A DNA stretch of 64,000 nucleotides from contig JBDKER010000003.1 of assembly GCA_039795165.1 (NCBI GenBank), forward strand, positions 105,220 to 169,219, given 5' to 3'. The notes below the pieces were generated by a model. The model had not been told where the DNA came from. It worked only from the letters and a program-made list of their open reading frames with translations, and made no database searches. This DNA is from Verrucomicrobiota bacterium. Its GTDB lineage: Bacteria; Verrucomicrobiota; Verrucomicrobiia; Verrucomicrobiales; V1-33. Each line of letters opens with the position of its first letter. Position 1 is the first letter of the stretch. This document shows, one piece after another, positions 6,846 to 26,400 of the stretch. The position numbers and the translations under genes were made by a program.

Positions 6846-9167
<2,322 letters not shown>

Positions 9168-9255
9168 GGGGGGGCGACTGGTCGGGTGCTGGAGAGGTGA
9201 AAGCGGCGTTTAGACGTTCCCTCCGGCGGATGCAAATGGTGCCCTGCGGATCCTT

Positions 9256-9295
9256 GAAAAGAAAAACCGGGCACCATGTCTTGACAGGTGGCCGG
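9256..9295 (-). terminator. putative intrinsic terminator downstream of the response regulator gene
   Basis: On the minus strand, CCGGCCACC-11 nt loop-GGTGCCCGG (one C.C mismatch) is followed by TTTTTCTTTTC. Confidence 0.45.
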
Positions 9296-9337
9296 TGTGG
9301 CGGGGCGGTGGTATGAGTGTCCGTGTGGTCTCTGGTG

Positions 9338-9997
9338 CTACGAGGATTTCTGGTTCTGGTTTTCGACCCAGCGGACGGCGTAGCGGACGAGTTCCGTGCC
9401 TGACTTCAGGTGGAGTTTGTCTTTGATGTTGGCGCGGTGGGCGTCGACGGTTTTGACGCTGACCTTGAGGTCCGAGGCGATGGCGCGGGTGCCTTTGCCC
9501 TGGCCGATCATCTGGAAGATTTCGAATTGGCGGTCGCTGAGGGCTTCGACGGGGTCCTGGGTGGTGGGGCGTCGGCCCGAGAAGATTTCGAGGATTTTGC
9601 CGGACATGGCCGGGCTGACGTAGATGTCGCCCTGGAGGACCTTGCGGACGGCTTCGAGGACGCGGCGGGCTCCTTCCTGCTTCATGATGTAGCCCTGGGC
9701 TCCGGCGCGGAGGACGCGTTCCACGTAGAGGCTTTCGTCGTGCATGGAGTGGACGAGGAGGGCAGCCTGTTTGTTGTGGGCGCGGACGTCCTTGATGAGT
9801 TCGAGGCCGTTTTTGCCGGGGAGGGAGATATCGATGATGACGAGGTCTGGGCGGAGTCCGATGATTTCCGTGAGGGCGCAGGCGGCGTCGTGGGCTTCAC
9901 CGGCGACTTCGAGGTCCGGCTCATGGTTGATGAGCTGGGCGAGGCCCTGACGCATGATCGGGTGGTCGTCGACCAGGTAGACGCGTTTCTTGATCAT
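9338..9997 (-). CDS. NarL/FixJ (LuxR-type HTH) family response regulator
   Basis: The internal ATG at 9997 gives MIKKRVYLVDDHP. Receiver domain with DLVIIDISLPG and a C-terminal LuxR HTH (LSDRQFEIFQMIGQGKGTRAIASDLKVSVKTVDAHR). Confidence 0.9.
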   Translation of the reverse strand: MIKKRVYLVDDHPIMRQGLAQLINHEPDLEVAGEAHDAACALTEIIGLRPDLVIIDISLPGKNGLELIKDVRAHNKQAALLVHSMHDESLYVERVLRAGAQGYIMKQEGARRVLEAVRKVLQGDIYVSPAMSGKILEIFSGRRPTTQDPVEALSDRQFEIFQMIGQGKGTRAIASDLKVSVKTVDAHRANIKDKLHLKSGTELVRYAVRWVENQNQKSS

Positions 9998-10107
9998 GAC
10001 AGGCCGGCGCGGTGGTGGAATTTCCACGGGATACTATCGGAAGCAGGCGAGCCTTGCAAGGTTCCTGGAGAATCCCTGTGGGAAAAATAGGGGGAAGGAG
10101 GATGGGG

Positions 10108-11781
10108 TCAGATGGTACCGAGCGTACATTGAACCGAGAGACCGGAGGAGGGGAGTCTGGTGAAGGAGAGTCGCCCCCCTATGATTCCGGCGCGGTACTG
10201 CATGACGCGGAGGCCCATGCCTGTGCTGGCGGGGGTGGAGCCGGGGAATCCGGAACCATTGTCGTCGATGGCGAGGGTGGTCTGACCGTCGCTGTGGGTG
10301 AGGCGGATACTGATTTCGGTGGCTTTCCCGTGTTTGACGGCATTGGAGACGGCTTCCTGGGCGATGCGGTATAGGTGGATGGCGGTGTCCTTGGGGATGG
10401 GGGGAGGCGATGGAGGAGTGGAGCAGTGGCAATGGACGCCGCGGAGGTGGCGGGAAGTGCTTTCGGCGAGGTCGGCGAGGGCGACGGCGAGGCCTTTTGA
10501 CTGGAGGACGACCGGGGAGAGGCCACGGGCGAGATCGCGGGTCTGGGCGATGGCTTCGCGGATGAGGCGGGTGATTTCCTCCATTTCGGCGGCCTCCGGG
10601 GCATGGCGGCTGCTGAGGCGGCTCTGGAGGACATGGCTCATGAATTCGATGCCGGTGAGGTGCTGGCCGAGGCCGTCGTGGAGGTCGTGTCCGATGCGGC
10701 TTTGTTCTTCTTCGGCGACATTGAGGACATCGGCTTCGAGGCGTTTTGTTTCGGTGATGTCGATGCCGCTGAGGATGACGTAGGCAACGCGTCCGTCGGC
10801 ACCCTGCATGGACGTGGTGGACCATGAGATGACGCGGCGGTCGCCTGAGGGGCTGAGGATGGAGCCTTCGTGGGCACTGGGAGGGGCTCCTGCGGCGATG
10901 CGGCTGAAGCTTCTGCGGGCGGCGGAGCGTTCGTCTCTGGGAAGGAAGAGGTCCCACGGGCAGGAACCGATGGTGGCATCGGCGGAGAGGCCGGTGGTGG
11001 TTTCGGCGGCGGGGTTGAAGCGGACGATGCGTCCGTCGGGGTCGAGGACGATGATGAGGGCACCGGCTCCGTTGAGGAGGGCGTGATTGAAGGCATTTTC
11101 CTGGCGGAGAGCGTCTTCGGTGCGTCGGCGTTCGAGGGCGTCGGCGATGATGGCGGCGACGATTTTCAGGAGGGAGATGGCGTCTTCCGTCCACTGCATG
11201 GCGAGGCGGACCGAATCGAGTCCGATGAAGCCGATGAGTTCGCCGCCGACGGCCATGGGGACGAAGATGACGGATTTGATGCCCTGGGAACGGAAGGTCT
11301 GCTGATCCGTGGCGGCTTCTGGTCCGAGGGTATCGACGGAATATACGGCGATGCCGTCGAGGCGGCGGAGGCGCTGAGCAGCCCATGGGATGTAGTCATC
11401 GATGGCGAGACCGGTGTGGCCGTGCCATGCGGGGGTGGAGCCGCTGGCGGACCAGTGGTGGGTGTGGTCCATGAGTTGGGAATGACTGTGCACGCGGCAG
11501 ACGTGGCAGTGGTCGACGCCGATGAATTCGCCCATCTGGCGGAGGGCTTCGGCGATGCCGGAGTCGAGGTCCTCGCTGCGGAGGCGGACGAAGAGACTGG
11601 AGATGCGGGAGACGAGGGCTTCGAATTCGACGCGCTGCTGGAGGGCGTTTTCCGTGCGGCGGATCTTGCGTGTGACGGGCCCCATGGAGGAAGAGGCGGC
11701 CTCGTCGACGAGTGGGCGGCCTGGGAGGACCTGATGGACCGTGAGTTCTTCCTGATCGTCTGATCGTTCAGCGGGGGTCAT
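10108..11781 (-). CDS. cytoplasmic GAF/PAS sensor histidine kinase (HisKA_3/NarX type)
   Basis: 557 aa with no obvious TM segment. A GAF-like region is followed by PAS, then the H-box IGHDLHDGLGQHL and the ATPase motifs DDNGSGF and GMGLRVM. It lies directly upstream of its NarL-type partner. Confidence 0.85.
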   Translation of the reverse strand: MTPAERSDDQEELTVHQVLPGRPLVDEAASSSMGPVTRKIRRTENALQQRVEFEALVSRISSLFVRLRSEDLDSGIAEALRQMGEFIGVDHCHVCRVHSHSQLMDHTHHWSASGSTPAWHGHTGLAIDDYIPWAAQRLRRLDGIAVYSVDTLGPEAATDQQTFRSQGIKSVIFVPMAVGGELIGFIGLDSVRLAMQWTEDAISLLKIVAAIIADALERRRTEDALRQENAFNHALLNGAGALIIVLDPDGRIVRFNPAAETTTGLSADATIGSCPWDLFLPRDERSAARRSFSRIAAGAPPSAHEGSILSPSGDRRVISWSTTSMQGADGRVAYVILSGIDITETKRLEADVLNVAEEEQSRIGHDLHDGLGQHLTGIEFMSHVLQSRLSSRHAPEAAEMEEITRLIREAIAQTRDLARGLSPVVLQSKGLAVALADLAESTSRHLRGVHCHCSTPPSPPPIPKDTAIHLYRIAQEAVSNAVKHGKATEISIRLTHSDGQTTLAIDDNGSGFPGSTPASTGMGLRVMQYRAGIIGGRLSFTRLPSSGLSVQCTLGTI

Positions 11782-11894
11782 GGGATGCGGAACTTTGCGG
11801 GAAAGCGATATGAGGCAAGCGGGGTGGTGGCTTGCAGAGCGGTCTTCAGGTGGAAAACGGTGGCTTTTGGCGATGACGAGGGTAACCGGATCAT

Positions 11895-13011
11895 ATGAGT
11901 AGACAGATTGCCCCTGTTGTGGTTTTCAGCACCGGCCGCTGCGGATCGACGATGATTTCGAGTCTGCTGAGCATGCATCCGGAGGTTCTGAGTCTTTCGG
12001 AGGCATTTTTGGGCACTGCCCCCGATGCGCTGCAGTCGAGCTGGATGTCCGGGGATGAATTTGCTGATCTCTGCTTAGTAACTAATCCGCTTGCAGTAAA
12101 AATGATAGGTGTGGGAATGGATTGGGACGAGGGCGTCTGTGATTTCAATGTGCCGGACATGCGATGGACCAAGACTTCCATTCCGCCGATCATCCACGCA
12201 TCAGTTCCGCACCACAGTCCGGATCCGGAGCGCTTTGATGCGGTGCATGATGAGCTGGAGGGAATGGCTGAGGCAGCAGCCGGGGCGGGCCACCGGGGAT
12301 CATTTCCGGTGTGTCTTTGATCACCTGCGGGATCGGCTGGGGCGGCGGGTCTGGGTTGAGCGGACGGGGGGATCGCTGACCTGGGCGGCGAAGCTTGTGA
12401 AGATGTTTCCCGAGGCGAGGTTTGTGCATGTGTACCGGGATGGGCGCGACACGGCCTTGTCGATGCTGCAGCATCCTGTTTTCCGGCTGGTTGCGGCGGC
12501 TCTTCATGATATGCGGGCTGACCGTGGGACGGTTCTGCTGCGGGCGAGGTGCCGCAGTGTGATGCGGCGGTTTGGATCGGTGGGGTATCTTCTCAATCCG
12601 GGAAATCCGCTGCTGCGCAGGCTGGTTCATGGGATGGAGCGGGTGGCGCTGCGGGCGCTGCTGGAGACGATTGATCTGCGCAATTTTGTGGACGATGCGG
12701 AAGTCACCTCGGCTCACATGGGGTGGCTTTGGAACGACTTGGTGATGAGGGGAGATCGGGTGCTGCGAGGGATTCCGGCCGAAAGGCGTCTGGACGTGAA
12801 GTTCGAGGATGTGCAGGCGGCACCCCGGGAGCAGCTGGAGCGGCTGATTCGGTTCATTGATCCTTCGCTGGTGGATGAGTCGTGGCTGCGGCAGGCATCT
12901 GCGGTGCCGCGGGCGGCGCGGTCGAGTTACCGGACGCTCCCTGAGGCGGAGCAGAAGCAGCTGACGGAGGTCTGCCGTCCGGCTTTGGAGCTGCTGGGGT
13001 ATCCCAGCTGA
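11895..13011 (+). pseudogene. sulfotransferase family gene split by a frameshift (or an assembly indel)
   Basis: ORF 11895..12320 carries the PAPS 5-prime-phosphosulfate loop (FSTGRCGSTMISSLL). ORF 12109..13011, in the +1 frame, carries the 3-prime-phosphate motif (FVHVYRDGRDTALSM). The two halves join sensibly near 12255-12300, for example ELEG/WLRQQPGR. Confidence 0.6.
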
Positions 13012-13023
13012 AGGCCGGTGGTT

Positions 13024-13815
13024 TCAGTTCCCTGTGCTGAGTGGGAGGAGTTCGATTTTCCGGAACCAGACGGGTTGGCCTTCGGCCTGGAGGGCGATGT
13101 GGCCGTGGGAGAGGATGGCGGGGGCTCCGGCGGCGAGGAGGTCCGAAGCCGGGGCGTTGTCGTTGGCGGGGTCGAGCTGGGGCCGCTGGTAGCGTAGGAC
13201 TTCCGTTCCGTTAATCCGGTGGATGATGGTGGAGCTGCCGCGGACTTCGATTTCGGCTTTGACCCATTGGTCCGGGGGGAAGGTGGGGGCGGAGGAAGTG
13301 ACAATGTGGCGGGTGACGAGTTTGCCGTCGATTTCGACGTGGGTGCCGGGGGTGCAGAGGTTGCCGGTGGGGCGGGGGCCCTTGCCTTCGTCGGCGAGGA
13401 ACTGCATTTCGAGGCTGGCGGGGAAGCCCTGATCGAAGCGCATGCTCTGGGGTGGCTGGGCGTGGACCATGATGCCGCTGTTGAGGTTCACGTAGGATGG
13501 GGCGTCGGGCACCATGGAGCCGGAGAAGCGGTATTCGAGGCGGAGGATGTAATGGGAATAGGAAAGGTTGGTGAATAGGTGGCCGAAGTGGCCGTCGAAC
13601 TTCTGGTAGCCGTCGTAGGAGACCTTGAGGATGCCGTCTTCGATGCGGAAGGTGCTGGCGTAGTTTTCTCCGAGGGGGCGTTTGGCGATTTTGATGGTCC
13701 AGCCGGAGAGGTCCTTGCCATTGAAGAGGGGGATCCATTGCGGCTCAGCGGCAGGGGTATCCGCTGCGAAGGCGGCGGCGAGTGCGGTGATGGCGGCGGC
13801 GAATGGGCGGATCAT
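13024..13815 (-). CDS. DUF1080 (3-keto-disaccharide hydrolase-like) secreted protein
   Basis: 263 aa with a signal peptide. Family-typical WIPLFNGKDLSGW at the N-terminus and HGHIALQAEGQPVWFRKIEL at the C-terminus. Confidence 0.85.
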   Translation of the reverse strand: MIRPFAAAITALAAAFAADTPAAEPQWIPLFNGKDLSGWTIKIAKRPLGENYASTFRIEDGILKVSYDGYQKFDGHFGHLFTNLSYSHYILRLEYRFSGSMVPDAPSYVNLNSGIMVHAQPPQSMRFDQGFPASLEMQFLADEGKGPRPTGNLCTPGTHVEIDGKLVTRHIVTSSAPTFPPDQWVKAEIEVRGSSTIIHRINGTEVLRYQRPQLDPANDNAPASDLLAAGAPAILSHGHIALQAEGQPVWFRKIELLPLSTGN

Positions 13816-13979: not shown

Positions 13980-15626
13980 TTACTTGAGGGGCATGAGGTT
14001 GCTTTCGCCCATGCTGCTTTCGCGGTCACCGACCTTGAGGTAGCGGTAGTAGACCTCTAGCATGAGGGTACAGAGGACGGTGCGGTAGATTTCGGCGCTG
14101 CCGCCAGCGGCGGTGGAGGTGGCGGCGGCGACTTCACCGCCTCCCTCGACCTTGTAGCTGCCGTCCTCGAGCTGGTTGGCGAGAATTTCCTTCTGGAACT
14201 GGGCATTCCATTTCTTCCATGGTTCGCCGCCCTTCTGGAAGAGGGCCTGGGTATTGTAGTACCATGTGTAGAGGTAGCAGTCAGAGTTCCAGCTGAGGGG
14301 TTCTTTTTCGAACTGATCGACGAGCCAGCGGATGCCTTTGTTGACCTTGCCGGCATTGCCTGCTCCCATGGTCTGGAGGCCGAGGAGGGCGGCGCCGGAG
14401 AGGTTCCACTGATTGTAGTGCTGGGCGCGGTCGGCGTTACCGAAGCCACCGTCGGCTGTCTGGGTGCTTTCGAGGTATTTCTCGACCTTTTTCATGGACC
14501 CGGCGAGGCCTGGGATTTTGAGATTGGTGTGTTTGGCGGCCTTGAGTGCCTGGAATTGCCAACCGGTGACGGAGAGGTCATTGCGGCCGTAGGGATCGTA
14601 GCCGATGCCGTCCTTGTAGCCCCAGGAGCCGTCCTTGGTTTGTTTTTCGATGATGATCTGCACACCGCGTTCGAAGCCTTGGCGGAGGCCGGGAAGTTCG
14701 CGTTTCCCGAGTTTGGCGAACGAGTAGACTTCGCCGAGGGCGTAGGTGGCGATGCCGTGTTCGTAGGTGCTGCGGATGCCGCTGGGGGCCTGGGAGAAGA
14801 TGCCGTTGAACTGGTTGCCGTTTTTCTGGCCGAGTTCGATGAGGAAGGTGATTCCTTTGAGGACGGTTTCTCCGTAGACTGGGGATTCCGGGGTTTCGCA
14901 GTGGCCGAGGTAGGCGAGCAGGGCCAATCCGGTCATGCCGGCGCGGTCGTTATTGCCCCATGAGCCGTCCGGGTTCTGTTTTTCCTTGAGCCATTTGAGG
15001 CCCTTCTTGACGGCGGTTTCGCATTGTTCGTTGCCGCCGTTCTCGCGCATTTTCTGGGCGCGTTCTGCGGGGGAGCAGCGGCTCTGCATGATTTTGGGGA
15101 GCGAGATGAAGCCGGCGCCTGAGCCGGGGCCCCAGCCCGAGCCAATGCCTGATCCGACGCCGCTGCCGGAACCGGTGCCGCGTCCAATGCCTTGTCCGGT
15201 GCCGAGGCCGCCGCCGCCGATGGTCATCTGGGTGAGACCGGAGAAATCGGTCATGGACGACTGGACGTCCGGGAGGGTGACGCCTGAGGATTTCGCCGAG
15301 GCGAGCTTCATTTTCGGCTGGGCGTGGCTGACGGCTCGCATCTTCTTCTGGGCGGCGTGTTTTTCGCCGCCGCCGCCGCCACCGCCGCCGCCGGGGAGGA
15401 AGTCCGGGGGTTCTTCGACGTTGTTGGAGGTCCGCCAGATGATGAAGAGGGCGAGGATGAGGAAGAGGGCGTGGACGATGATGCTGATGCTGAGGGAGCC
15501 GCCGCCGAGGCGGTGCCAGTAGCCGGTTTTGGGGCGGTCTTCGTGAGCGGGGGTGGCCTCGTAGTACTGGGGTTCCTCGTAGCCCTGGTATTCGGGTGGC
15601 GGGGGAGGTGGAGGGGGGGTGCTCAT
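13980..15626 (-). CDS. membrane-anchored protein: Pro-rich N-tail, one TM helix with S-x3-H, Gly-rich linker, prenyltransferase/squalene-cyclase-like repeat domain
   Basis: I take the ATG at 15626; the track start at 15677 is TTG. TM segment SLSISIIVHALFLILALFIIW, a G9 run and a GxGxG linker. Repeats QNPDGSWG, TKDGSWGY, TADGGFG, LEDGSY, plus the family-typical SVTGWQFQALKAA. Confidence 0.8.
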   Translation of the reverse strand: MSTPPPPPPPPEYQGYEEPQYYEATPAHEDRPKTGYWHRLGGGSLSISIIVHALFLILALFIIWRTSNNVEEPPDFLPGGGGGGGGGEKHAAQKKMRAVSHAQPKMKLASAKSSGVTLPDVQSSMTDFSGLTQMTIGGGGLGTGQGIGRGTGSGSGVGSGIGSGWGPGSGAGFISLPKIMQSRCSPAERAQKMRENGGNEQCETAVKKGLKWLKEKQNPDGSWGNNDRAGMTGLALLAYLGHCETPESPVYGETVLKGITFLIELGQKNGNQFNGIFSQAPSGIRSTYEHGIATYALGEVYSFAKLGKRELPGLRQGFERGVQIIIEKQTKDGSWGYKDGIGYDPYGRNDLSVTGWQFQALKAAKHTNLKIPGLAGSMKKVEKYLESTQTADGGFGNADRAQHYNQWNLSGAALLGLQTMGAGNAGKVNKGIRWLVDQFEKEPLSWNSDCYLYTWYYNTQALFQKGGEPWKKWNAQFQKEILANQLEDGSYKVEGGGEVAAATSTAAGGSAEIYRTVLCTLMLEVYYRYLKVGDRESSMGESNLMPLK

Positions 15627-15714
15627 GGGCGGCAGAATGGGGTTGTCCCTGTTAAGACGGATTGAAGGGGACGCCAATTAGAAAAATTGATGCGGTTTGG
15701 TACGGAAGAAGTCG

Positions 15715-18067: not shown

Positions 18068-21000
18068 GTGAAAAGAAATTCAAAATTCTCCCTGCGTCTC
18101 CTCGTACCGGTCAGCGTGTTGGCTTTAGCGGCGGCGGTTCCGGCTCAGGATGCGGCGGCACCCGATGCCAAGCCGGCTGACGCGGCGGCGGGGGACAAGG
18201 CGCCTGCGCTGCCGGCCGTGGATCTGGGTGATCCCGATGCGATCATCAAGAATGGGGATGATGCCTATGCGAAGGGGGACTGGCTCAATGCGGCGGCGAA
18301 TTATTCGGCGCTCATGACGATTGCGCAGAAGACCGGGGCGACGCCTGACAAGCTGGAGCCGCTCTACTTCACGCTGGGGGCATGTCTCTTCAACATTCCG
18401 AATTACGATTTGGCCTTCAAGACATTCACGGAGTACACGCAGAAGTATCCGACTGGGAAGAACATCCGGTATGCCCAGCTGGGGCTGGCGCGCATTATGC
18501 GGGCACAGAAGAAGTGGCCGGAGGCGGTCAAGCAGTATGAGACGCTCAAGAACGAGCCGGCGCTGCGGGACGATGTGATGATCGAGTTGGCGGATTCCTA
18601 CAAGGAGAACGAGCAGAAGGACAAGGCGATCGTGCTGCTGGAGACCACGCTGGCTCCGGGGGTGAAGACATCATCCGATGTGCGGCTGGCGCTTTATCTT
18701 GTGGATCTGTATGCGGACGACAAGCCGGAGAAGGGGGTGGCGCTGCTGGACAAGGTGAAGCGGGCACCGGGGATGCGGCCGATGATTTCGGAGATCAACT
18801 TTGCGGCGCTCAAGCTGGCCGATGCGCTCATGGGAGACAACAAGCCTGAGGAGGCGCTGCCGGCCTATCAAAATCTGCGCAAGCACAAGGAAGTGGTCGA
18901 TACGCTCAAGGAGCTGCGGGATGATTATGGGCGTCTCATCAAGAGCCTGTCGGCGCGGGTTGGTCCCAAGGATCCGAATGTGATTGCCAACCAGCAGCAA
19001 CTGGCGCGGGTGAAGCAGTACGAGGCGCAGGCCAAGGCGATGATCGAGGCCCTTGAGAAGGAGCAGAACTACGATGCGGTCGTCTTTTACCGGATCGGGC
19101 GTTGTTTTGCGGCCCTTGGGAGGTTCTGGGAAGCGCGGCTGGCCTTTCAGTACGTTCTCGATAAGTTCCCCAAGTTCGAGGATGCGCCGAGTGTGCTTTA
19201 TGCTCTTACATACTGTCATTACAATCTGACGCCTGCTGATCTGACGCAGGACAACATGAAGATGGGGGAGGAGACGCAGAAGCTGTGCCGGCAGTTCCTG
19301 AGCAAGCATCCCGATCGTGAGGAGACGCAGCAGGTTGCGGAGATGCTGATTACGATTGCGACGCGGAGCGGAGATCCTGCGAAGATCAACACGGTCTACG
19401 AGGAGGTGATGGATCTGATCAAGGACTCGCCGAACAAGAGTGTGTTTCTGGCGGTGCAGGTGCAGAACTATCTTGAGCAGTATGATTTCGACAAGGCGCG
19501 GGATGCCGCCGACAAGTTTCTCGGTTCGGCGCCCGCAGACGATCCGCAGCGGGAGGCAGTGGAGTACATGCGGGGGCTGACGTGGTTCTTCAAGAATGAC
19601 TACAACGGAGCGGTGGAGGCCCTCAAGGCGTACATTGAGAAGTATCCATCGGGTCAGTACATTGCGGATGCGAAGTACCGCCGGGCGTTCCTTGTGCTGG
19701 GGGAAGAGCGGCAGAAGAAGAACAAGAAGGGGAACCCTCAGTTCCGGAATGTGATTCAGTACGCGGAGGACATCATCAAGAACCATTTTGGCACTCCATC
19801 GGTGGCGGATGCCTATGCCCTCATCGGGGATGCCTACAAGGACATGACCGGGTCCGAGATGCAGGATGCGGGACTGACGCCGGAGACTCTGGAGACGGCC
19901 ACCGCGGATGCCTATGTCAATGCGGTGAAGAATGCGGCAGCGGAGCAGGTGGCTGAGTACAGTCTAACGCAGGCGGCGCCGATGCTGAAGGCGCAGAGCC
20001 GCTGGCCTGAACTCATCACGCTGTACGAAGGTTTCCGGAAGCAGTGGCCCGAGAACCGTCAGTCGCTTGCGGCGGTCGGGGAAATCTGCACAGCGATTGT
20101 GCGGCGGAGCGACGGGGCCTTTGCGGATGAGATAGCGGCTGCGGAGGAGAAGAAGGACGAAGCGGCGGTGAAGAAATTCATGGAACAGCGGGTGGAGTCG
20201 CGGGAGAAGGCGCAGGCGGAGAGCCGGCAGTTCCTGGCCGAGACGATCACGGAAAACATCAACAATCCGCGCAAGGATGGGGTGGAGGATCTCATGCAGC
20301 AACTGGCTGTGGCGGCCATACCCAAGCGGAAGCCGGCTCCGGTGCCGCCTGCCAATCCTGCGGCGACTACGGACCCTGCGGTGAAGAGCGAACCGCCGAA
20401 GCGTCCGCCGCCGCCGACGGTGGAGGAACTGGGCAAGCCAGCTGAGGCGGAACTGGACCGTCTGCTCGGGGAGAAGGATCTGTCGGCGATCGGCAAGGCG
20501 CGGCTAGTTTATGTGAAGTCCCTGCTGTACAGGAATCTGGAGGCCAAGCAGCCCCGGAAGAAGGACGACAAGGGGCAATATATTGTCGACAATGCGCCGA
20601 AGCGTTCGGATGAGCTGATGCAGCAGCTGACGACCGAGTTTCGCCCTGAGGATTACAGTGGGCGGCTCCTCGCGGTGGTGGGCGATCATCTGCAGAAGGC
20701 GGGCGAGCGGGACAAGGCGGCGCAATGCTATAACCGGCTGCTGCAGTTCTTCCCGCAGTCGGCCTTTGTGGATTGGGGAGCGGTGGGGCTGGGTCAGATG
20801 GCCCTTGAGGACAAGGATTACGAAACGGCTCTTGCGAAGTTCAACGTGGCCACGGAGGAATTTCCGGGAATGAAGTATGGCGAGGCGCTCCTTGGGAAAT
20901 CCCGGGCGCTCATGGAGCTGAAGCGGTTTGGGGATGCCGAGAAGGATCCGGCGAACAGTCCTGAGAAGATGCTGAAGGAACTGCTTGGGGACAAGACGAC

Positions 21001-21292
21001 GCCGCCCGAGACGAAGGCGGAGGCCACTTGGCTGCTTGGGGAAGTCCGTTTTGCGCAGCAGGATTATGGTGACGCGTTCAACTATTTCCAGCGCCTCTAT
21101 CTATCATTCCTGAAGTTTCCGAAGTGGGTGGCCCGGGGTTATCTGCGGGCAGGGGAGACGAAGGAGGCCCTGCAAAAATACACGGACGCCAAGGATGTGT
21201 ACAAGGAAGCGGTCGAGACCCCGAAGATCAGCGAGCGGATCAAGGGCGAGGCTGACTTCCAGAAGATTCAGGAAAATTACCGCAAACTCTGA
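18068..21292 (+). CDS. large secreted tetratricopeptide-repeat protein with repeated CpoB/YbgF-like units
   Basis: The track ORF starts at 17858, inside the CDF gene. The in-frame GTG at 18068 gives a classic signal peptide (KRNSKFSLRLLVPVSVLALAAAVPAQD); an alternative ATG lies at 17945. TPR units of the type F..Y..KYP.G.....A.L.LA recur throughout the protein. Confidence 0.8.
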   Translation: MKRNSKFSLRLLVPVSVLALAAAVPAQDAAAPDAKPADAAAGDKAPALPAVDLGDPDAIIKNGDDAYAKGDWLNAAANYSALMTIAQKTGATPDKLEPLYFTLGACLFNIPNYDLAFKTFTEYTQKYPTGKNIRYAQLGLARIMRAQKKWPEAVKQYETLKNEPALRDDVMIELADSYKENEQKDKAIVLLETTLAPGVKTSSDVRLALYLVDLYADDKPEKGVALLDKVKRAPGMRPMISEINFAALKLADALMGDNKPEEALPAYQNLRKHKEVVDTLKELRDDYGRLIKSLSARVGPKDPNVIANQQQLARVKQYEAQAKAMIEALEKEQNYDAVVFYRIGRCFAALGRFWEARLAFQYVLDKFPKFEDAPSVLYALTYCHYNLTPADLTQDNMKMGEETQKLCRQFLSKHPDREETQQVAEMLITIATRSGDPAKINTVYEEVMDLIKDSPNKSVFLAVQVQNYLEQYDFDKARDAADKFLGSAPADDPQREAVEYMRGLTWFFKNDYNGAVEALKAYIEKYPSGQYIADAKYRRAFLVLGEERQKKNKKGNPQFRNVIQYAEDIIKNHFGTPSVADAYALIGDAYKDMTGSEMQDAGLTPETLETATADAYVNAVKNAAAEQVAEYSLTQAAPMLKAQSRWPELITLYEGFRKQWPENRQSLAAVGEICTAIVRRSDGAFADEIAAAEEKKDEAAVKKFMEQRVESREKAQAESRQFLAETITENINNPRKDGVEDLMQQLAVAAIPKRKPAPVPPANPAATTDPAVKSEPPKRPPPPTVEELGKPAEAELDRLLGEKDLSAIGKARLVYVKSLLYRNLEAKQPRKKDDKGQYIVDNAPKRSDELMQQLTTEFRPEDYSGRLLAVVGDHLQKAGERDKAAQCYNRLLQFFPQSAFVDWGAVGLGQMALEDKDYETALAKFNVATEEFPGMKYGEALLGKSRALMELKRFGDAEKDPANSPEKMLKELLGDKTTPPETKAEATWLLGEVRFAQQDYGDAFNYFQRLYLSFLKFPKWVARGYLRAGETKEALQKYTDAKDVYKEAVETPKISERIKGEADFQKIQENYRKL

Positions 21293-22230
21293 TGGCCTGT
21301 CCTTCTGTCATGAATTTCTCAATCAGATCCCTGACTGCCGCGGCTTCTCTGCTGCTGGTTCTATCTGCGGGCCCGGCGGGTGCGCAGCGGCTCTATTTCG
21401 CCAATGGGGCGGACGTCGACTGGAGCGAGGTGACTCTTTCCGGCAGCAACATTCAGAAGAAGATCCGCCAAGCGGATGGCCGGGATGGCTATGCGAGCAT
21501 TCCGGCGTCGAATGTGGCCCGGGTGGACTGGCCGTTTCCGGCCGAACTGGCGGATGCGGGCGAGGCCCTCAGCCGTGGCAATTACGATGAAGCGCTCAAG
21601 AATGCGGAGGCCGTGCGGGCGATTCACCGGAACTGGAAGGACAAGCCGGGGTCGTGGTACGTTCCTGCGACGCTCATTGCGCTCGAATGTCATATCCGGA
21701 AGAACAACAATGCGGAGGCCGACAAGATTTTTCCGGAGCTGCGCAACATGCAGCTGAGCAGTGACTACCAGAAGGGTGCCGGGATGATGGAGGCGCTTCA
21801 GCAGTTTCAGAAGGGGATGACTGGTCCGGCCCTGCAGAAGGCCAACACGCTGCTGGCGGGAACGGAAAATTCCGCGGTGCTTGCCCGACTTTACAATCTG
21901 ATTGGCGACATTCAGTTCAAGAGGGAGGCGTACAAGGAGGCCCTTGATGCCTATCTGCAGATTCCGGTGTTTTTCGGAACCCAGGCCGCTCTGCTGCCGG
22001 GTGCGGAGTTCGGGGCCGCGCGTTCCCTCATGCGGCTGCGGCGGCTGGAAGATGCCAATGTGGCACTTGATCGGATTCTCCAGCGCTACAAGGGAACGTG
22101 GGTGGAGGCACCGGCGCGCAAGGAGAAAGAAGATCTTGAGAAGGTGATTGGCGCCGGTGGGGCCGAGGCGGCCGGCAAAGAGGCTGGTGAAAAGCCGGCC
22201 GAAGGTGCGGCTCCTGAAAAAACCGAATGA
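21292..22230 (+). CDS. secreted TPR-like protein
   Basis: Its ATG overlaps the upstream stop (TGATG); an alternative start at 21310 (MNFSIRSL..) gives a signal peptide. Helical-repeat composition with a K/E/A-rich tail. Confidence 0.6.
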   Translation: MACPSVMNFSIRSLTAAASLLLVLSAGPAGAQRLYFANGADVDWSEVTLSGSNIQKKIRQADGRDGYASIPASNVARVDWPFPAELADAGEALSRGNYDEALKNAEAVRAIHRNWKDKPGSWYVPATLIALECHIRKNNNAEADKIFPELRNMQLSSDYQKGAGMMEALQQFQKGMTGPALQKANTLLAGTENSAVLARLYNLIGDIQFKREAYKEALDAYLQIPVFFGTQAALLPGAEFGAARSLMRLRRLEDANVALDRILQRYKGTWVEAPARKEKEDLEKVIGAGGAEAAGKEAGEKPAEGAAPEKTE

Positions 22231-22328
22231 TTTCCGAGAAAAAGCCTACCCAAGAGCGAATCCTGTTTCCTAGAATCTGTCAAAAGCGACCCCATCCGAA
22301 CCATCATCGAATTTCCCAAACACCTGCC

Positions 22329-23141
22329 ATGAACGCCAAACGTCTTCTGCGTCCCTTCCCCATTGCCACCGTTTTTTCCCTGCTCGCCACTCCGCTTGTG
22401 CTGGCGGCCGAGGAAGAAGCGAAGGGTGGATTCTCCGAAAAGTCTCTCTGGGACATGATTGTCCTCGGGGGGCCGGTGATGATCTTTCTTTTCCTGTTCT
22501 CGATCGGGATGGTCTGGCTGGTGATTGACGGGGTGCAGCGTTCCTCGCTCAAGCGGCTCATGCCGGAAGGCGAGCTGGAGAAGATGCGGAACTATTTCCG
22601 GGCGGGCGACTATGTGGGAGCTCACCAGAGCTGCGTGGACAATCCCTGTGCCTTCAACAATGTGGTGCGGGCTGGTCTGGTGAACGTGGGGGATGGCAAG
22701 GATGCGACCGAGGAAGCGATCCTTGCGGAGATCAACCGCGAGCAGCAGCGTCAGGCGACGCGGCTGTCCTATCTTTCCGTCATTGGGGTTTGCACGCCGA
22801 TGGTGGGTCTGATTGGAACGGTGTTCGGGATGATCGGGGCCTTCGGAGAACTGGGCAAAGGCGGAGCCACCCAGAACACGGAAGCGCTTTCCGAGAAAAT
22901 CGGCGAGGTGCTGGTGGCGACGGCATCTGGTCTGGTGATCGCGGTGCCAGCCTTCATGGGCTTCTACTTCCTGCGCAACCGTCTCCAGGGATCGGTGCAC
23001 GAGATGGAGAACGAAGTGGCCAACCTCTTCCGGAAGTTCCCGTATCATCTGGCTGAGGGAGTTCACGTGGGCGACCAGGAACTCTACGCCAATGCGCCGG
23101 CCTGGGTGGAAGGTGGCGCGGGCGACGCCGTGCAGGCCTGA
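22329..23141 (+). CDS. MotA/TolQ/ExbB proton-channel family protein
   Basis: The ATG at 22329 gives a signal-like N-terminus; an alternative ATG at 22227 overlaps the upstream stop (ATGA). Conserved core TPMVGLIGTVFGMI and GEVLVATASGLVIAVPAF. Confidence 0.9.
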   Translation: MNAKRLLRPFPIATVFSLLATPLVLAAEEEAKGGFSEKSLWDMIVLGGPVMIFLFLFSIGMVWLVIDGVQRSSLKRLMPEGELEKMRNYFRAGDYVGAHQSCVDNPCAFNNVVRAGLVNVGDGKDATEEAILAEINREQQRQATRLSYLSVIGVCTPMVGLIGTVFGMIGAFGELGKGGATQNTEALSEKIGEVLVATASGLVIAVPAFMGFYFLRNRLQGSVHEMENEVANLFRKFPYHLAEGVHVGDQELYANAPAWVEGGAGDAVQA

Positions 23142-23186
23142 GCCTGACGGATAAATTACTTCAACCAACCTTCACTCTAAAAACCT

Positions 23187-23633
23187 ATGGGCGGCGGCGG
23201 CGGCGGCATGGAAAGCGGGGAGCCTGAGTTTCAGGTCGCTCCGATGATTGACGTGCTCCTTGTGATTCTCATTTTCTTCATGAGCATCACGACGGCGCAG
23301 ATTGAGAAGCTCGACAAGTCGATTGCGCTTCCGGTGGCACCTGATGCCAAGGAGCGGAAGCCTGACAAGAACCAGCGGACGGTGAACGTGCGCTGGAACA
23401 AGAACGAGCAGAAGGCCCTTATGACCTTCGGGGGGCTAGAGTGGCAGGACCGGGAGGGACTGGCCGAGGAACTCCGGAAGATTGCGGACACCATGCCGGA
23501 CGGCAAGGGGGGTACGCGACTGGAGATTCTGGTGCGGGCTGACCGGGCGACGCCTGCCAAGGAAGTGCAGGCGGCCATTGCGGTCATTGCTCAATCAACT
23601 GCTGCGGTGGCCTACGCCACGCACAACCGCTGA
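23187..23633 (+). CDS. ExbD/TolR family protein (copy 1)
   Basis: 148 aa. The TM segment with the conserved Asp is FQVAPMIDVLLVILIFFM, followed by a periplasmic domain. Confidence 0.9.
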   Translation: MGGGGGGMESGEPEFQVAPMIDVLLVILIFFMSITTAQIEKLDKSIALPVAPDAKERKPDKNQRTVNVRWNKNEQKALMTFGGLEWQDREGLAEELRKIADTMPDGKGGTRLEILVRADRATPAKEVQAAIAVIAQSTAAVAYATHNR

Positions 23634-23642
23634 ACTATCTTC

Positions 23643-24077
23643 ATGAAGCGACACCGCCATCAGAGTCAGAAGGAAGAGGAAGTGGGCTTTCAGATTGCCC
23701 CAATGATCGACGTGGTCTTTGTGATCATGCTCTTCTTCATGGTGCAGGCGGGGAACCGCCAGGTGGAGACCGAGTTGAAGATGAAGCTGCCATCGACGGA
23801 GCCAGGGGATGACGCGAGTGACACTCCGATGGAGGAACAGGTATCGGTCGATCAGGACGGGGCGATCAGCCACAATGATGAGCCGGTATCGCAGGGGGAG
23901 CTGAAGGCGAACTTCAAACGGCTGGCGCAGCAGGCGAAGGCCGAAGGAGGGACGCCGATCATTGTGACGATCACTGCGGAGTCGACGACTCCGTGGGAGA
24001 AGGTTGTGGATGTCATGAATGCGATGCAGTTTGCGGGCATTGCGAACGTTACTTTTTCAGTCAATGAGGAATTCTGA
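23643..24077 (+). CDS. ExbD/TolR family protein (copy 2)
   Basis: 144 aa, TM segment FQIAPMIDVVFVIMLFFMV. It starts 9 nt after copy 1 ends. Confidence 0.9.
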   Translation: MKRHRHQSQKEEEVGFQIAPMIDVVFVIMLFFMVQAGNRQVETELKMKLPSTEPGDDASDTPMEEQVSVDQDGAISHNDEPVSQGELKANFKRLAQQAKAEGGTPIIVTITAESTTPWEKVVDVMNAMQFAGIANVTFSVNEEF

Positions 24078-24172
24078 TGGTGGCTTCCGGTTTCTCCAGG
24101 AAAGCCCGGCAGTGGGCCGTTCCGGGATGAGCTGTATTGTCTGAGAGCACGACTAAACCTGAGGAATCTGCT

Positions 24173-25411
24173 ATGAAGCCATCCCGTTCTCCTGTTTCTC
24201 CGGAAGTGAAGCCTGTGGTTCCGCCGTCGCTGCCCGGGGATGCTTCTGCGGGTGACTTGCTGGATGGGGAGGAAGCTCCGAAGAAGGATGGGCCGTTCAT
24301 GGCCTACTGGAAGAAGATTGGCGGCGGATCGTTCACGATTTCGCTGCTGCTGCATATTCTCTTTCTGATTGCGGCGATTCTGATCGTCTGGACGACCTCG
24401 AATGCGGGGACGGAGGAGAACATTGACTTTCTGAGTGGCGGGGGAGGCGGGACGGAAGGGAACACGAAGATCAACGAGAAGCGGCGTCAGATGATGGTGA
24501 ACAAGGCTCCTGCGATGAAGATTGCGGCGAAGACGAGCGGGGCCATCACGCTGCCGGATACGTCGTCGACGCTGGCGGACATGAGCACGCTGTCGGTGAC
24601 GTCCGGGATGATGAGCGGGACGCCGGGGAGCGGTGGCGGCTTTGGTGGCGGCAAGGGAACGGGGCGTGGAACCGGGATGGGATCGGGTTTCGGGCCGGGG
24701 AGTCAGCCTGGGTTCACGGCGAACTTTCTGGGGCTGACGTCGATGGGGAACAACATCATTTTCTGCATCGACACATCTGGCAGCATGCGGACGAATCTGT
24801 CAGCGGCGGGGATTACCGCGCTGCGGCGTGAGTTGAAGAAGGTGATTGATGGGCTGCCTCCGTCGGCGCAGTTCAACATCATCTGTTTTGGTCAGAACGG
24901 GGATTTGTTCAAATCGAAGAGTGTCACGGCGACGCAGGAGATGAAGAACGAGGCGACGCGGTTCATGGAAGGGTACTATGGGGGCGGAAGTGCGGATTTC
25001 GGGCGGACGAGGACGGAGAAGTACGGGCGGGCCGGCAAGGATGCCCTTGGCATCGAGTACACGGCGATTCTCACCGAGGACATCCAGGAGCTGGCGGGAA
25101 CGGAGGGAGGCAGTCGGATTGATCTGGCGATGGTGGCGGCCTTTGAGCGGAAGCCGACGACGCTCTATGTGCTGAGCGACGGTGCACCGGGAACGCGCAT
25201 GGCGGGTGAACCGGCCATGGACAAGGATGACATCATCAAGCTGATCTACACGAAGTTCGAGAAGATGCTGGGGAAGACGTCCAAGATGCAGGTGAATACG
25301 ATTTCGATTTATTCGAATTCCGAGGAAGGACGGGAAGGGGAGAAGTTTCTGAAGAAGCTGGCGGCGAAGTTCGGGGGCAAGCACAAGGAGATCAAGCCTG
25401 ACAAGTTGTGA
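24173..25411 (+). CDS. TonB/TolA-position membrane-anchored protein: TM helix with S-x3-H, Gly-rich linker, von Willebrand factor A domain
   Basis: ATG at 24173 preceded by GAGGAA; the track start at 24137 is TTG. TM segment SFTISLLLHILFLIAAILIVW, then a G5 run and a GxGxG linker. vWA MIDAS motif IIFCIDTSGSM with a later VLSDGAPG. Confidence 0.8.
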   Translation: MKPSRSPVSPEVKPVVPPSLPGDASAGDLLDGEEAPKKDGPFMAYWKKIGGGSFTISLLLHILFLIAAILIVWTTSNAGTEENIDFLSGGGGGTEGNTKINEKRRQMMVNKAPAMKIAAKTSGAITLPDTSSTLADMSTLSVTSGMMSGTPGSGGGFGGGKGTGRGTGMGSGFGPGSQPGFTANFLGLTSMGNNIIFCIDTSGSMRTNLSAAGITALRRELKKVIDGLPPSAQFNIICFGQNGDLFKSKSVTATQEMKNEATRFMEGYYGGGSADFGRTRTEKYGRAGKDALGIEYTAILTEDIQELAGTEGGSRIDLAMVAAFERKPTTLYVLSDGAPGTRMAGEPAMDKDDIIKLIYTKFEKMLGKTSKMQVNTISIYSNSEEGREGEKFLKKLAAKFGGKHKEIKPDKL

Positions 25412-26400
25412 GGAAGCTGCGGCAGGTTGTGGCGGCGGTCGCGGTTTTCCTTCCTTGCCTCTGCGGGGCAGCGGAACCGGGAAGTGACCTGCGGGTTGTT
25501 CCTGCGGGCAATGGCCGGGCGTTTCAGCTGCGGGATCGGTCGTTCAGCGATCTGAGTGGGCTGACGTGGGTGGGTGGCAACCGCTATGCTGCGGTGTCCG
25601 ACAAGGTGGCGGCGGTGATTCCGCTGATTCTGGCGGTGGATGGGCGGGGTCAGGTGACTGGGGTGGAGCCGGCGGCTCCGGTTCCGGTGGTGACGAAGCT
25701 GAAGGATTTCGAGGGGATTGCATGGGATGGGGTGTCGGGTCGGTTTCATGTGAGTGCGGAGGGCGGGCCGGGAATTCAGGCGTTTGCGGCGGCGGATGGC
25801 CGGGCTTCTGCGCCGTGGCGGCTCCCGTCCGAGTTTGCGATGGTGCGGCCGAATCTGGCACTGGAGTCACTGACCTTGGAGTCGTCCTCGGGGCGATGCT
25901 GGACGGCCAATGAGGAAGCGCTTTCCGTCGATGGTCCGGTGGCGGGCCGGGCGCAGGGAACGGCGGTGCGGCTGCAGGAATTTTCTCAGGAGGGGCGGCC
26001 GCTGCGGCAGTTCTGCTGGGTGACGGAACCGGCCGGAGCGAGGTTTCAGGGGGCAGGCAATGGGGTGGCGGACCTATGTCTGCTGCCTGGCGGATTGCTG
26101 CTGCTGCTCGAGCGGGGGTTTGCATCCGGCGGGCTGCATGCGAGGATTTTCCTTGCGGATTTCCGTGGGGCGACACCGACTGATGGTTTGGCTTCTCTTG
26201 TGGGCGAGGCGGTGCGACCGGTGCGGAAGCGGCTGTTGCTGGATTTGCCCTGTGGATTCACGAACTACGAAGGGCTGTGTGCGGGACCGGAGCTGGCGGA
26301 TGGATCCCGGCTGCTGGTCATGGTGGCCGACAGCAATGGCGGGGACCGTCACAGTTTCCTCGGGTTGCGGCTGAGTGGCCTGCCGGAGCGGAAGCGCTGA
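25408..26400 (+). CDS. secreted phytase-like (esterase-like activity of phytase family) beta-propeller protein
   Basis: The GTG start overlaps the upstream stop (GTGA). Signal peptide present. Family motifs LSGLTWVGGNRYAAVSD, FEGIAWDG..FHVSAEG, NLALESLTL and NYEGLCAGPELADGSRLLVMVADSN. Confidence 0.7.
   Translation: MRKLRQVVAAVAVFLPCLCGAAEPGSDLRVVPAGNGRAFQLRDRSFSDLSGLTWVGGNRYAAVSDKVAAVIPLILAVDGRGQVTGVEPAAPVPVVTKLKDFEGIAWDGVSGRFHVSAEGGPGIQAFAAADGRASAPWRLPSEFAMVRPNLALESLTLESSSGRCWTANEEALSVDGPVAGRAQGTAVRLQEFSQEGRPLRQFCWVTEPAGARFQGAGNGVADLCLLPGGLLLLLERGFASGGLHARIFLADFRGATPTDGLASLVGEAVRPVRKRLLLDLPCGFTNYEGLCAGPELADGSRLLVMVADSNGGDRHSFLGLRLSGLPERKR

Follow-up and report, generated by a model that had tools for sequence, protein, structure and literature searches.

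A 64-kb window of DNA from a freshwater member of the Verrucomicrobiales (all positions given here are those of this window) carries seven genes, g1-g7, on the same (+) strand at 18068-26400. We consider it likely that they specify a Ton/Tol-type machine driven by the proton motive force, in which g6, a protein with a von Willebrand factor type A (vWA) head, acts as the transducer. The initial annotation of this DNA had given the gene order as a tetratricopeptide repeat (TPR) protein, a TPR-like protein, ExbB/TolQ, two ExbD/TolR proteins, a vWA protein and a propeller, and domain scans matched that order. The genes are as follows.

18068-21292, + strand: g1, a secreted TPR solenoid protein of 1074 amino acids (aa), 'TPR-L', recognized in Pfam/NCBIfam, which opens the conserved module
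21292-22230, + strand: g2, a secreted 312-aa protein, 'TPR-S' (AlphaFold2 (AF2), Foldseek, NCBIfam)
22329-23141, + strand (open reading frame (ORF) opening at 22227): g3, an ExbB/TolQ-type proton-channel subunit (Pfam MotA_ExbB, 1.5e-25)
23187-23633, + strand: g4, ExbD/TolR paralogue 1, with its transmembrane (TM) Asp22 at 23250-23252 (Pfam ExbD, 1.8e-14)
23643-24077, + strand: g5, ExbD/TolR paralogue 2, with TM Asp23 at 23709-23711 (Pfam ExbD, 3e-23)
24173-25411, + strand: g6, a 412-aa vWA force-transducer candidate made up of a cytoplasmic tail, TM anchor, linker and vWA head
25408-26400, + strand: g7, a secreted phytase-like beta-propeller (Pfam Phytase-like, 7e-46)

ORFs and junctions were read directly, and the tight junctions claimed earlier are present: TGATG at 21290-21294, where the g1 stop and the g2 ATG at 21292 overlap; 9 nt (23634-23642) between the exbD genes g4 and g5; and GTGA at 25408-25411, where the TGA stop of g6 is overlapped by the GTG start of g7. 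An overlap of g2 with g3 is possible (ATGA at 22227-22230); ATG 22329 is the likelier ExbB start, since homologues align from MNAKRLL there. Spacing is looser between g3 and g4 (45 nt) and between g5 and g6 (95 nt), and a Shine-Dalgarno-like GAGGAA lies 8 nt before the g6 ATG at 24173. The start of g1 is ambiguous (GTG 18068, or TTG 17858 upstream). Promoter and terminator scans gave counts no better than those of shuffled sequences, and co-transcription is therefore proposed from spacing and conserved synteny only.

The gene in the position of a Ton or Tol transducer, g6, has the following parts (pLDDT, predicted local distance difference test).

24326-24400, + strand: TM helix, residues 52-76 (AF2 helix, pLDDT 75-92)
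24341-24355, + strand: S57-x3-H61 (SLLLH) within the TM helix, read in translation
24503-24724, + strand: Gly-rich disordered linker, residues 111-184 (AF2 pLDDT <50)
24542-24559, + strand: conserved AITLPD, residues 124-129, a candidate 'motor box' in which P128 is invariant
24740-25408, + strand: vWA head, residues 190-412 (AF2 pLDDT ~90, Foldseek, profile)
24770-24784, + strand: metal-ion-dependent adhesion site (MIDAS), D200-T-S202-G-S204 (DTSGS), plus D336 (translation, alignment)

Every motif that had been noted in this 412-aa protein (S-x3-H in the TM helix, a poly-Gly/GxGxG linker and the DTSGS of a vWA domain) is present, and the vWA fold was modelled. The AF2 model also shows a helix at residues 95-110, between the TM helix and the disordered stretch. 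The linker carries GGGGG and GxGxG, the GxGxG runs forming nearly invariant Gly columns in an alignment of relatives. In the same alignment H61, P128, D200, S202, S204 and D336 are invariant, with H61 found in 25 relatives. A Foldseek search of the model against the PDB returned the vWA domains of ITIH4, ITIH1, alpha2delta and CLCA1 (E 3e-11 to 1e-5), and a profile of the g6 family matched the ITIH4 vWA at 8e-10. As anticipated, no TonB_C or TolA domain was found in 24173-25411 with Pfam/NCBIfam models, even at E<=10, other than noise-level TolA matches to the TM region (E 9.7). TonB and TolA identities for g6 were rejected by these domain tests. A BatA/BatB identity was rejected as well, there being no BatA N-terminal domain or bat operon signature (MoxR, DUF58, BatC/D/E) in g6 and its neighbours according to Pfam/NCBIfam. 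Taken with the structure model, these results indicate that g6 ends in a true vWA domain whose MIDAS is intact and that no Ton/Tol head is hidden in the protein.

The Pfam scores of g3-g5 exceed the cut-offs for MotA_ExbB and ExbD. APMIDV with its TM Asp was read in the translations of both g4 (Asp22) and g5 (Asp23); the two are heterologous, cross-matches between the paralogues being only 23-30% identical. In NCBIfam the motor subunits score best against TolQ/TolR models, the top match of g3 being tolQ at 73 bits, under the equivalog cut-off. Because none of the tolQ, tolR, exbB and exbD equivalog cut-offs is reached, the genes count as orthodox members of neither Tol nor Ton. The domain scan as a whole returned MotA_ExbB, two ExbD, TPR and Phytase-like matches as expected, but the expected VWA match of g6 stayed below threshold, with VWA_2, VWA_3 and VWA at 18-21 bits and only the N-terminal half of each model covered.

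The two proteins encoded upstream of the motor are both secreted. Matches to g1 comprise Pfam TPR_6, TPR_12, TPR_2 and YfiO, together with YbgF-like units; its score against NCBIfam tol_pal_ybgF (TIGR02795), 91.1 bits with a cut-off of 90.1, sums 3-5 repeat stretches of a 119-position model, and the Tol-Pal context is absent. The AF2 model of g2 (pLDDT 86.8) has a TPR solenoid at 84-295, preceded by a small beta domain at 33-79. Pfam TPR matches of g2 are weak, its best Foldseek match, BamD, is a generic TPR match, and homologues are named 'TolA-binding protein' in JGI.

Force transducers with vWA domains have been predicted computationally, with a Planctomycetes-Verrucomicrobia-Chlamydiae (PVC) operon, in 'Origin and Evolution of Bacterial Periplasmic Force Transducers' (Mol Biol Evol 2025;42(6):msaf138, PMC12204202). 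Members of this class are tethered to the inner membrane by a TM helix bearing a His and an SHLS motif; their linker is disordered and contains a motor box, and the C-terminal domain is of the vWA type. AlphaFold3 (AF3) models of other class members place the TM His in the motor site used by TonB/TolA, and the class is found in species without recognizable TolA or TonB; no deletion phenotypes are reported and the function is stated as unknown (PMC12204202). The g6 locus shares the Ser/His TM helix, vWA head and motor operon. S57-x3-H61 agrees with the SHLS or conserved His of the description, the AF2, Foldseek and profile-PDB results agree with its C-terminal vWA fold, and the disordered Gly-rich stretch 111-184 with the conserved AITLPD resembles its linker, AITLPD being named a candidate motor box by analogy to PMC12204202. 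We conclude from these described features that the g6 locus is a new member of the published class. The study independently reached the view, put forward in the initial annotation, of a Tol/Ton-like motor with a vWA protein in the TonB/TolA slot; the accompanying statement that such an anchored vWA fusion is undescribed is thereby outdated. PMC12204202 names only vWA heads and one TPR gene, whereas the g6 locus has two conserved TPR genes, and it mentions neither PA14 nor toroid heads, both of which occur on the g6-type anchor.

The g6 family profile was run with HMMER against 1.84 billion representatives and matched 7870 proteins at E<1e-3, 1405 of them at E<1e-10. Anchor statistics were taken from the best 150 representatives. 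An N-terminal TM helix is present in 131 of them, and 123 of these 131 retain the His within it; the residue at His-4 is Ser in 95, Thr in 5 and Ala in 17, giving S/T-x3-H in 100. Among the eight representatives without the TM His, two (P0197, P0270) have an Asn at some position of the TM helix; in E. coli TonB, Asn is the one substitution known to be tolerated at His20. A strict regular expression for h-x-L-P-(D/E) found the motif ~55 residues past the TM helix in 57 of 110 representatives. Judged from these alignments, the S-x3-H anchor is a signature of the family rather than a product of chance. The phylum range of the family was taken from the statement in PMC12204202 and from records of metagenome-assembled genomes (MAGs). 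In some representatives a cytoplasmic domain precedes the anchor, a Ser/Thr protein kinase in P0203 and SAM in P0192, P0264 and P0211, which hints at regulation or signalling via the transducer.

Conservation of the gene order was followed from both ends of the module. A scan of GTDB species genomes from the g6 side found 41 loci; every one comes from an uncultured bacterium, of the Verrucomicrobiales in almost all cases, and the closest are 98% and 95% identical. The order TPR-TPR-ExbB-ExbD-ExbD-g6 is kept down to ~37% identity, and g6 follows exbB-exbD-exbD directly in the Verrucomicrobiales loci L002-L011, L014, L016, L017, L023, L026, L027 and L033, as well as at 28% in L039, a MAG of the Opitutales; the TPR pair lies upstream in these loci wherever the contig extends far enough. 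In the very distant members L045, L046 and L048 the transducer gene also comes directly after exbB-exbD-exbD; start/stop overlaps with exbD2 occur in distant L046, L047 and L048, and both TPR genes precede in L045 and L048. A metagenome scan from the g2 side gave 80 loci, and in every one with enough sequence g2 is followed by ExbB-ExbD-ExbD. Of the 42 loci with room for it, 38 have a g1 homologue before g2, and an anchor protein follows ExbD2 in 15 of the 27 that have >=4.2 kb downstream. The co-occurrence of the anchor gene with exbBD, which the initial annotation had proposed to survey, is seen in related and very distant loci. Motors without a transducer and transducers without a motor both exist, an arrangement that recalls E. 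coli, where tonB is unlinked to exbBD.

Some loci depart from the basic arrangement by duplication. Three ExbD-like genes rather than two are present in L016 (8019-9320) and L096 (3271-4736). A second vWA-transducer paralogue lies 2 kb downstream of the first in L008 (13151-14446), and L012 and L007 are two vWA paralogues of the same MAG.

The window itself contains a second gene of the transducer type.

13980-15629, - strand: second transducer-type gene, 549 aa, with an alpha/alpha-toroid (squalene-hopene-cyclase-like) head (BLASTP, Pfam)

The first ~135 residues of this paralogue are 45% identical to residues 37-141 of g6 (BLASTP, 4e-21), and the two proteins have in common S-x3-H (SIIVH in the paralogue), a DFLPGGGGG stretch, a TLPD segment and a Gly linker. 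Its head matches Pfam SQHop_cyclase_C at 1e-10 (41.6 bits, cut-off 26.1). The paralogue probably uses the same motor as g6. Its gene is followed on the same strand by a 3-keto-disaccharide hydrolase gene (13024-13815) and is kept at the same position in L002, L003, L005 and L049-L052.

Other heads occur in the slot after the motor. In 11 metagenome loci the gene directly after ExbD2 has a toroid head, L113 has a PA14/GLEYA head in the transducer slot, and L045 has a vWA gene and a PA14-like gene in tandem whose anchor and linker sequences are identical. Altogether, the fetched loci contain 20 anchor-vWA, 18 anchor-toroid and 3 anchor-PA14 genes. Since the same anchor and linker carry different heads in the same slot, the anchor behaves as a portable module; at least three head types on one anchor argue that it is the motor-coupling element, and natural chimeras are available. 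The toroid and PA14 heads go beyond the published vWA class. In L045, three tandem genes follow exbD2 (8001-12095), each with a cytoplasmic SAM domain, and the third has a different TM helix without His. L042 (4956-10752) has three anchor genes with PA14-like heads, relatives of P0061, two of them adjacent and the third ~1.6 kb upstream with two opposite-strand genes between, and no motor genes within 8 kb. P0061 (anchor plus PA14-like head, three tandem copies) was set aside as a test of linkage; no motor is nearby, and it neither supports nor refutes coupling.

Compared with the Ton system, the g6 locus has the same motor genes of the 5:2 type with the ExbD TM Asp, and a single-pass transducer in which S-x3-H is followed by a flexible linker that spans the periplasm and by a globular head; the order exbB-exbD-exbD-transducer is that of Bacteroidota-type Ton clusters. 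Unlike Ton, it has no TonB_C, Pro-rich linker or nearby TonB-dependent receptor, and the g6 head would bind via the metal of its MIDAS, not through beta-strand addition with a TonB box. With Tol-Pal it shares a motor that scores best as TolQ/TolR, the CpoB/YbgF-like units of g1 and a propeller gene after the transducer, but it lacks TolA domain III, TolB (g7 is phytase-like) and Pal, and the propeller is not conserved beyond close relatives. The absence of Pal, TolB, TonB_C and TonB-dependent receptor genes from the cluster, remarked on earlier, was confirmed in the scans. The Agl-Glt machinery of Myxococcus likewise combines a TolQR-type motor with a vWA protein and TPR components; there, however, CglB is an outer-membrane surface adhesin whereas g6 is an inner-membrane-anchored fusion, and GltG and GltJ carry TonB_C-type domains whereas no Glt genes are found at the g6 locus.

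From the gene content, motifs, vWA fold, synteny and anchor conservation we infer a docking mode, a route of force transduction and a physiological role. ExbB/TolQ (g3) would form the channel ring in the inner membrane, and the two different ExbD/TolR proteins (g4, g5) would be its proton-binding inner pair, converting the proton motive force into movement. g6 would dock on the outside of the motor via its single TM helix, through Ser57 and His61, and its TLPD segment, just past the membrane, may engage the periplasmic domains of ExbD. The flexible Gly-rich linker (about 110 residues) could then carry the metal-dependent vWA head across the periplasm to bind a partner, with the secreted TPR proteins g1 and g2 as a putative conserved periplasmic scaffold, as CpoB is for TolA. 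To our knowledge, Ton and Tol are the only well-understood deliveries of inner-membrane energy to the Gram-negative outer membrane. The set is enlarged by a third class of transducers, whose head is a metal-dependent adhesion domain, and this class may account for the energy supply of PVC bacteria that bring intact polymers into the periplasm.

As to the role, our first choice is that glycans or other macromolecules are captured or imported at the outer membrane with energy from the motor; a Tol-like envelope role ranks next and gliding last. Capture and import would be favoured because of the PA14 heads, the glycoside hydrolase neighbours in L045 and L048, and a hint of Mul1B in g2 (below). 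PA14/GLEYA domains belong to the carbohydrate-binding folds. L045 and L048 are flanked by fucosidase, GH2 and GH39 genes, the neighbours of L045 being alpha-L-fucosidase and GH2 genes.

If the vWA transducer and the CpoB-like TPR proteins replaced Tol-Pal, they would stabilize or tether the outer membrane in division and have no part in uptake. Several observations fit such a substitute: g1 has YbgF/CpoB-like units (91 bits), g2 homologues bear the JGI name 'TolA-binding protein', the motor subunits do best against TolQ/TolR models, the class occurs in species without recognizable TolA or TonB (PMC12204202), and lepA and lepB are housekeeping neighbours. However, Pal, TolB and peptidoglycan-binding proteins were absent from the operon and its surroundings in domain scans and in related loci, several interchangeable ligand-binding heads, PA14 among them, fit capture better than a single tethering job, and some genomes have two vWA paralogues (L008, L007/L012). 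We regard a Tol-Pal substitute as unlikely.

A number of findings weigh against the Ton/Tol-type machine proposed here. The Pfam vWA scores of g6 are sub-threshold, and its linker is Gly-rich, neither Pro-rich nor helical. Of SHLS only the S and H are kept in the family, H+7 being mostly Ala/Leu and H+11 Val/Ile. The Opitutales orthologue (L039 6616-7938, P0272), which follows exbB-exbD-exbD, has neither the TM His nor Ser-x3-His, and in a marine clade (~17 loci) the anchor reads Ala-x3-His and the g6 homologue has no motor within 10 kb. Twelve of the 27 motor operons lack an adjacent transducer and end at ExbD2, and no conserved gene for an outer-membrane partner was found in the operon. The expectation that S-x3-H would be kept in orthologues accordingly holds for the His (all 25 aligned relatives, 123 of 131 representatives), but not for the Ser in the marine clade or for the His in L039; linkage to exbBD, expected likewise, is kept across distant members but lost in the marine clade.

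Several of these findings would suit a g6 that is a passive vWA scaffold or adhesin of the inner membrane (BatA/BatB-like), merely co-transcribed with the motor, with a canonical TonB elsewhere as the true transducer and a structural role for the TM His. vWA proteins with N-terminal TM helices are common, motor linkage is lost in P0329 as well as in the marine clade, and both the orthologue without His (L039) and the 12 operons without an adjacent transducer agree with it. On the other hand, neither the BatA N-terminal domain nor any other Bat signature was found, and conservation of the TM His and of Ser/Thr over 131 diverged representatives is hard to explain structurally. Anchor and linker swap as a unit between heads while the slot after ExbD2 is kept, start/stop overlaps with exbD2 recur in distant members, and the published AF3 docking supports coupling (PMC12204202). 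A passive scaffold is, in our judgement, quite improbable. A drive for surface adhesion or gliding, with the vWA head acting as in the myxobacterial CglB pathway, was suggested by the authors of PMC12204202 and has a precedent in the vWA adhesin and TolQR-type motor of Myxococcus Agl-Glt, but it can be largely discounted as the least likely role because a head tethered to the inner membrane by about 130 residues cannot reach the cell surface; in addition, no Glt-like outer-membrane or periplasmic components lie in the operon, and no homology of g6 to GltG/GltJ (TonB_C) was detected.

The g6 locus was also compared with mucin utilization locus 1 (MUL1) of Akkermansia muciniphila, whose gene content was taken from a RefSeq annotation table. 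The g2 protein matched the NCBIfam model NF052542, 'Mul1B family putative transporter subunit', at 32 bits (E 7e-8), not reaching the cut-off of 75; g2 residues 33-164, the N-terminal non-TPR part, align to positions 33-164 of the model. Seven of 11 g2 family members match NF052542 at E<0.01, g2 best and none near the cut-off. In RefSeq, genes for ExbD/TolR (Amuc_0546) and MotA/TolQ/ExbB (Amuc_0548) lie beside mul1A (Amuc_0544) and mul1B (Amuc_0543), and mul1A mutants cannot use mucin (PMC12570417). Both loci belong to the order Verrucomicrobiales, but the Akkermansia motor is on the other side of mul1A/mul1B. No protein named Mul1B was among the word-index matches of g2, searched as single protein and as profile, which were to environmental Verrucomicrobiales only. 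Against the connection, the link consists of a 32-bit match with a cut-off of 75, and a 2026 study reports no MUL1 synteny in aquatic Akkermansiaceae (PMC13174399). The match and the RefSeq neighbourhood hint that MUL1 may be a relative, and the link, if real, would tie the vWA class to an existing mutant phenotype, the failure to use mucin.

A broader proposal is that TPR-TPR-TolQ-TolR-TolR is a general 'plug-in' motor of PVC bacteria to which a portable cassette couples interchangeable heads, the locus described here being the environmental counterpart of MUL1, driven by the proton motive force and capturing glycans or importing them into the periplasm without TonB boxes. The cassette would consist of the S-x3-H anchor, TLPD motor box and Gly linker, its heads being vWA, PA14/GLEYA or alpha/alpha-toroid, sometimes with a cytoplasmic SAM or kinase domain. 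We put this forward as a doubtful but possible extension; if true, it would provide the first phenotype for the 2025 'vWA force transducer' class.

The propeller gene g7 follows g6 only in the closest relatives (L001-L005, L013, L049-L052) and does not follow it in L006-L014 (L013 being counted among the carriers), and g7 is therefore a lineage-specific accessory, not part of the core. The earlier likening of g7 to TolB is apt in that a beta-propeller follows the transducer, but the parallel is weak, since g7 is lineage-specific. In the marine clade (L018-L022, L025, L028-L032, L034-L036, L038), 14 loci have a secreted DUF3616/phytase-like propeller gene directly upstream of the g6 homologue, preceded by uvrB in all six loci whose neighbours were read; in L018 a convergent BamB-like (PQQ_2) propeller lies downstream of the g6 homologue. 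The marine DUF3616-like propeller was rejected as a homologue of g7, a hidden Markov model built from 15 copies having missed g7, and is analogous at most. In L107, a locus without a transducer, the gene after the motor (9742-11733) encodes a 663-aa protein with weak matches to beta-barrel porins (DUF2490, BBP2_2), the only candidate outer-membrane component seen beside the operon.

The operon is flanked upstream by a CDF cation-efflux transporter gene and downstream by lepA and lepB. Elsewhere the window resembles other PVC genomes, with a PSCyt1/PSCyt2/PSD1 protein, a sulfatase and a sulfatase-modifying (FGE) enzyme. Two JGI contigs, L049 (Ga0315906_10001608) and L050 (Ga0315899_10001010), encode a g2 that is 100% identical to that of the window and match the window in gene order from the toroid paralogue to g6, L049 continuing to lepA and L050 ending inside g6; they come very probably from the same population as the window. 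The 'Akkermansia' labels of the MAGs of L001, L009, L010 and L033 are probably family-level placements and should not be taken for gut Akkermansia. Finally, GC skew, (G-C)/(G+C), is positive in all 2-kb bins of the window (1-64000), from +0.09 to +0.41, whatever the strand of the genes, and is unusually strong for a bacterial chromosome.

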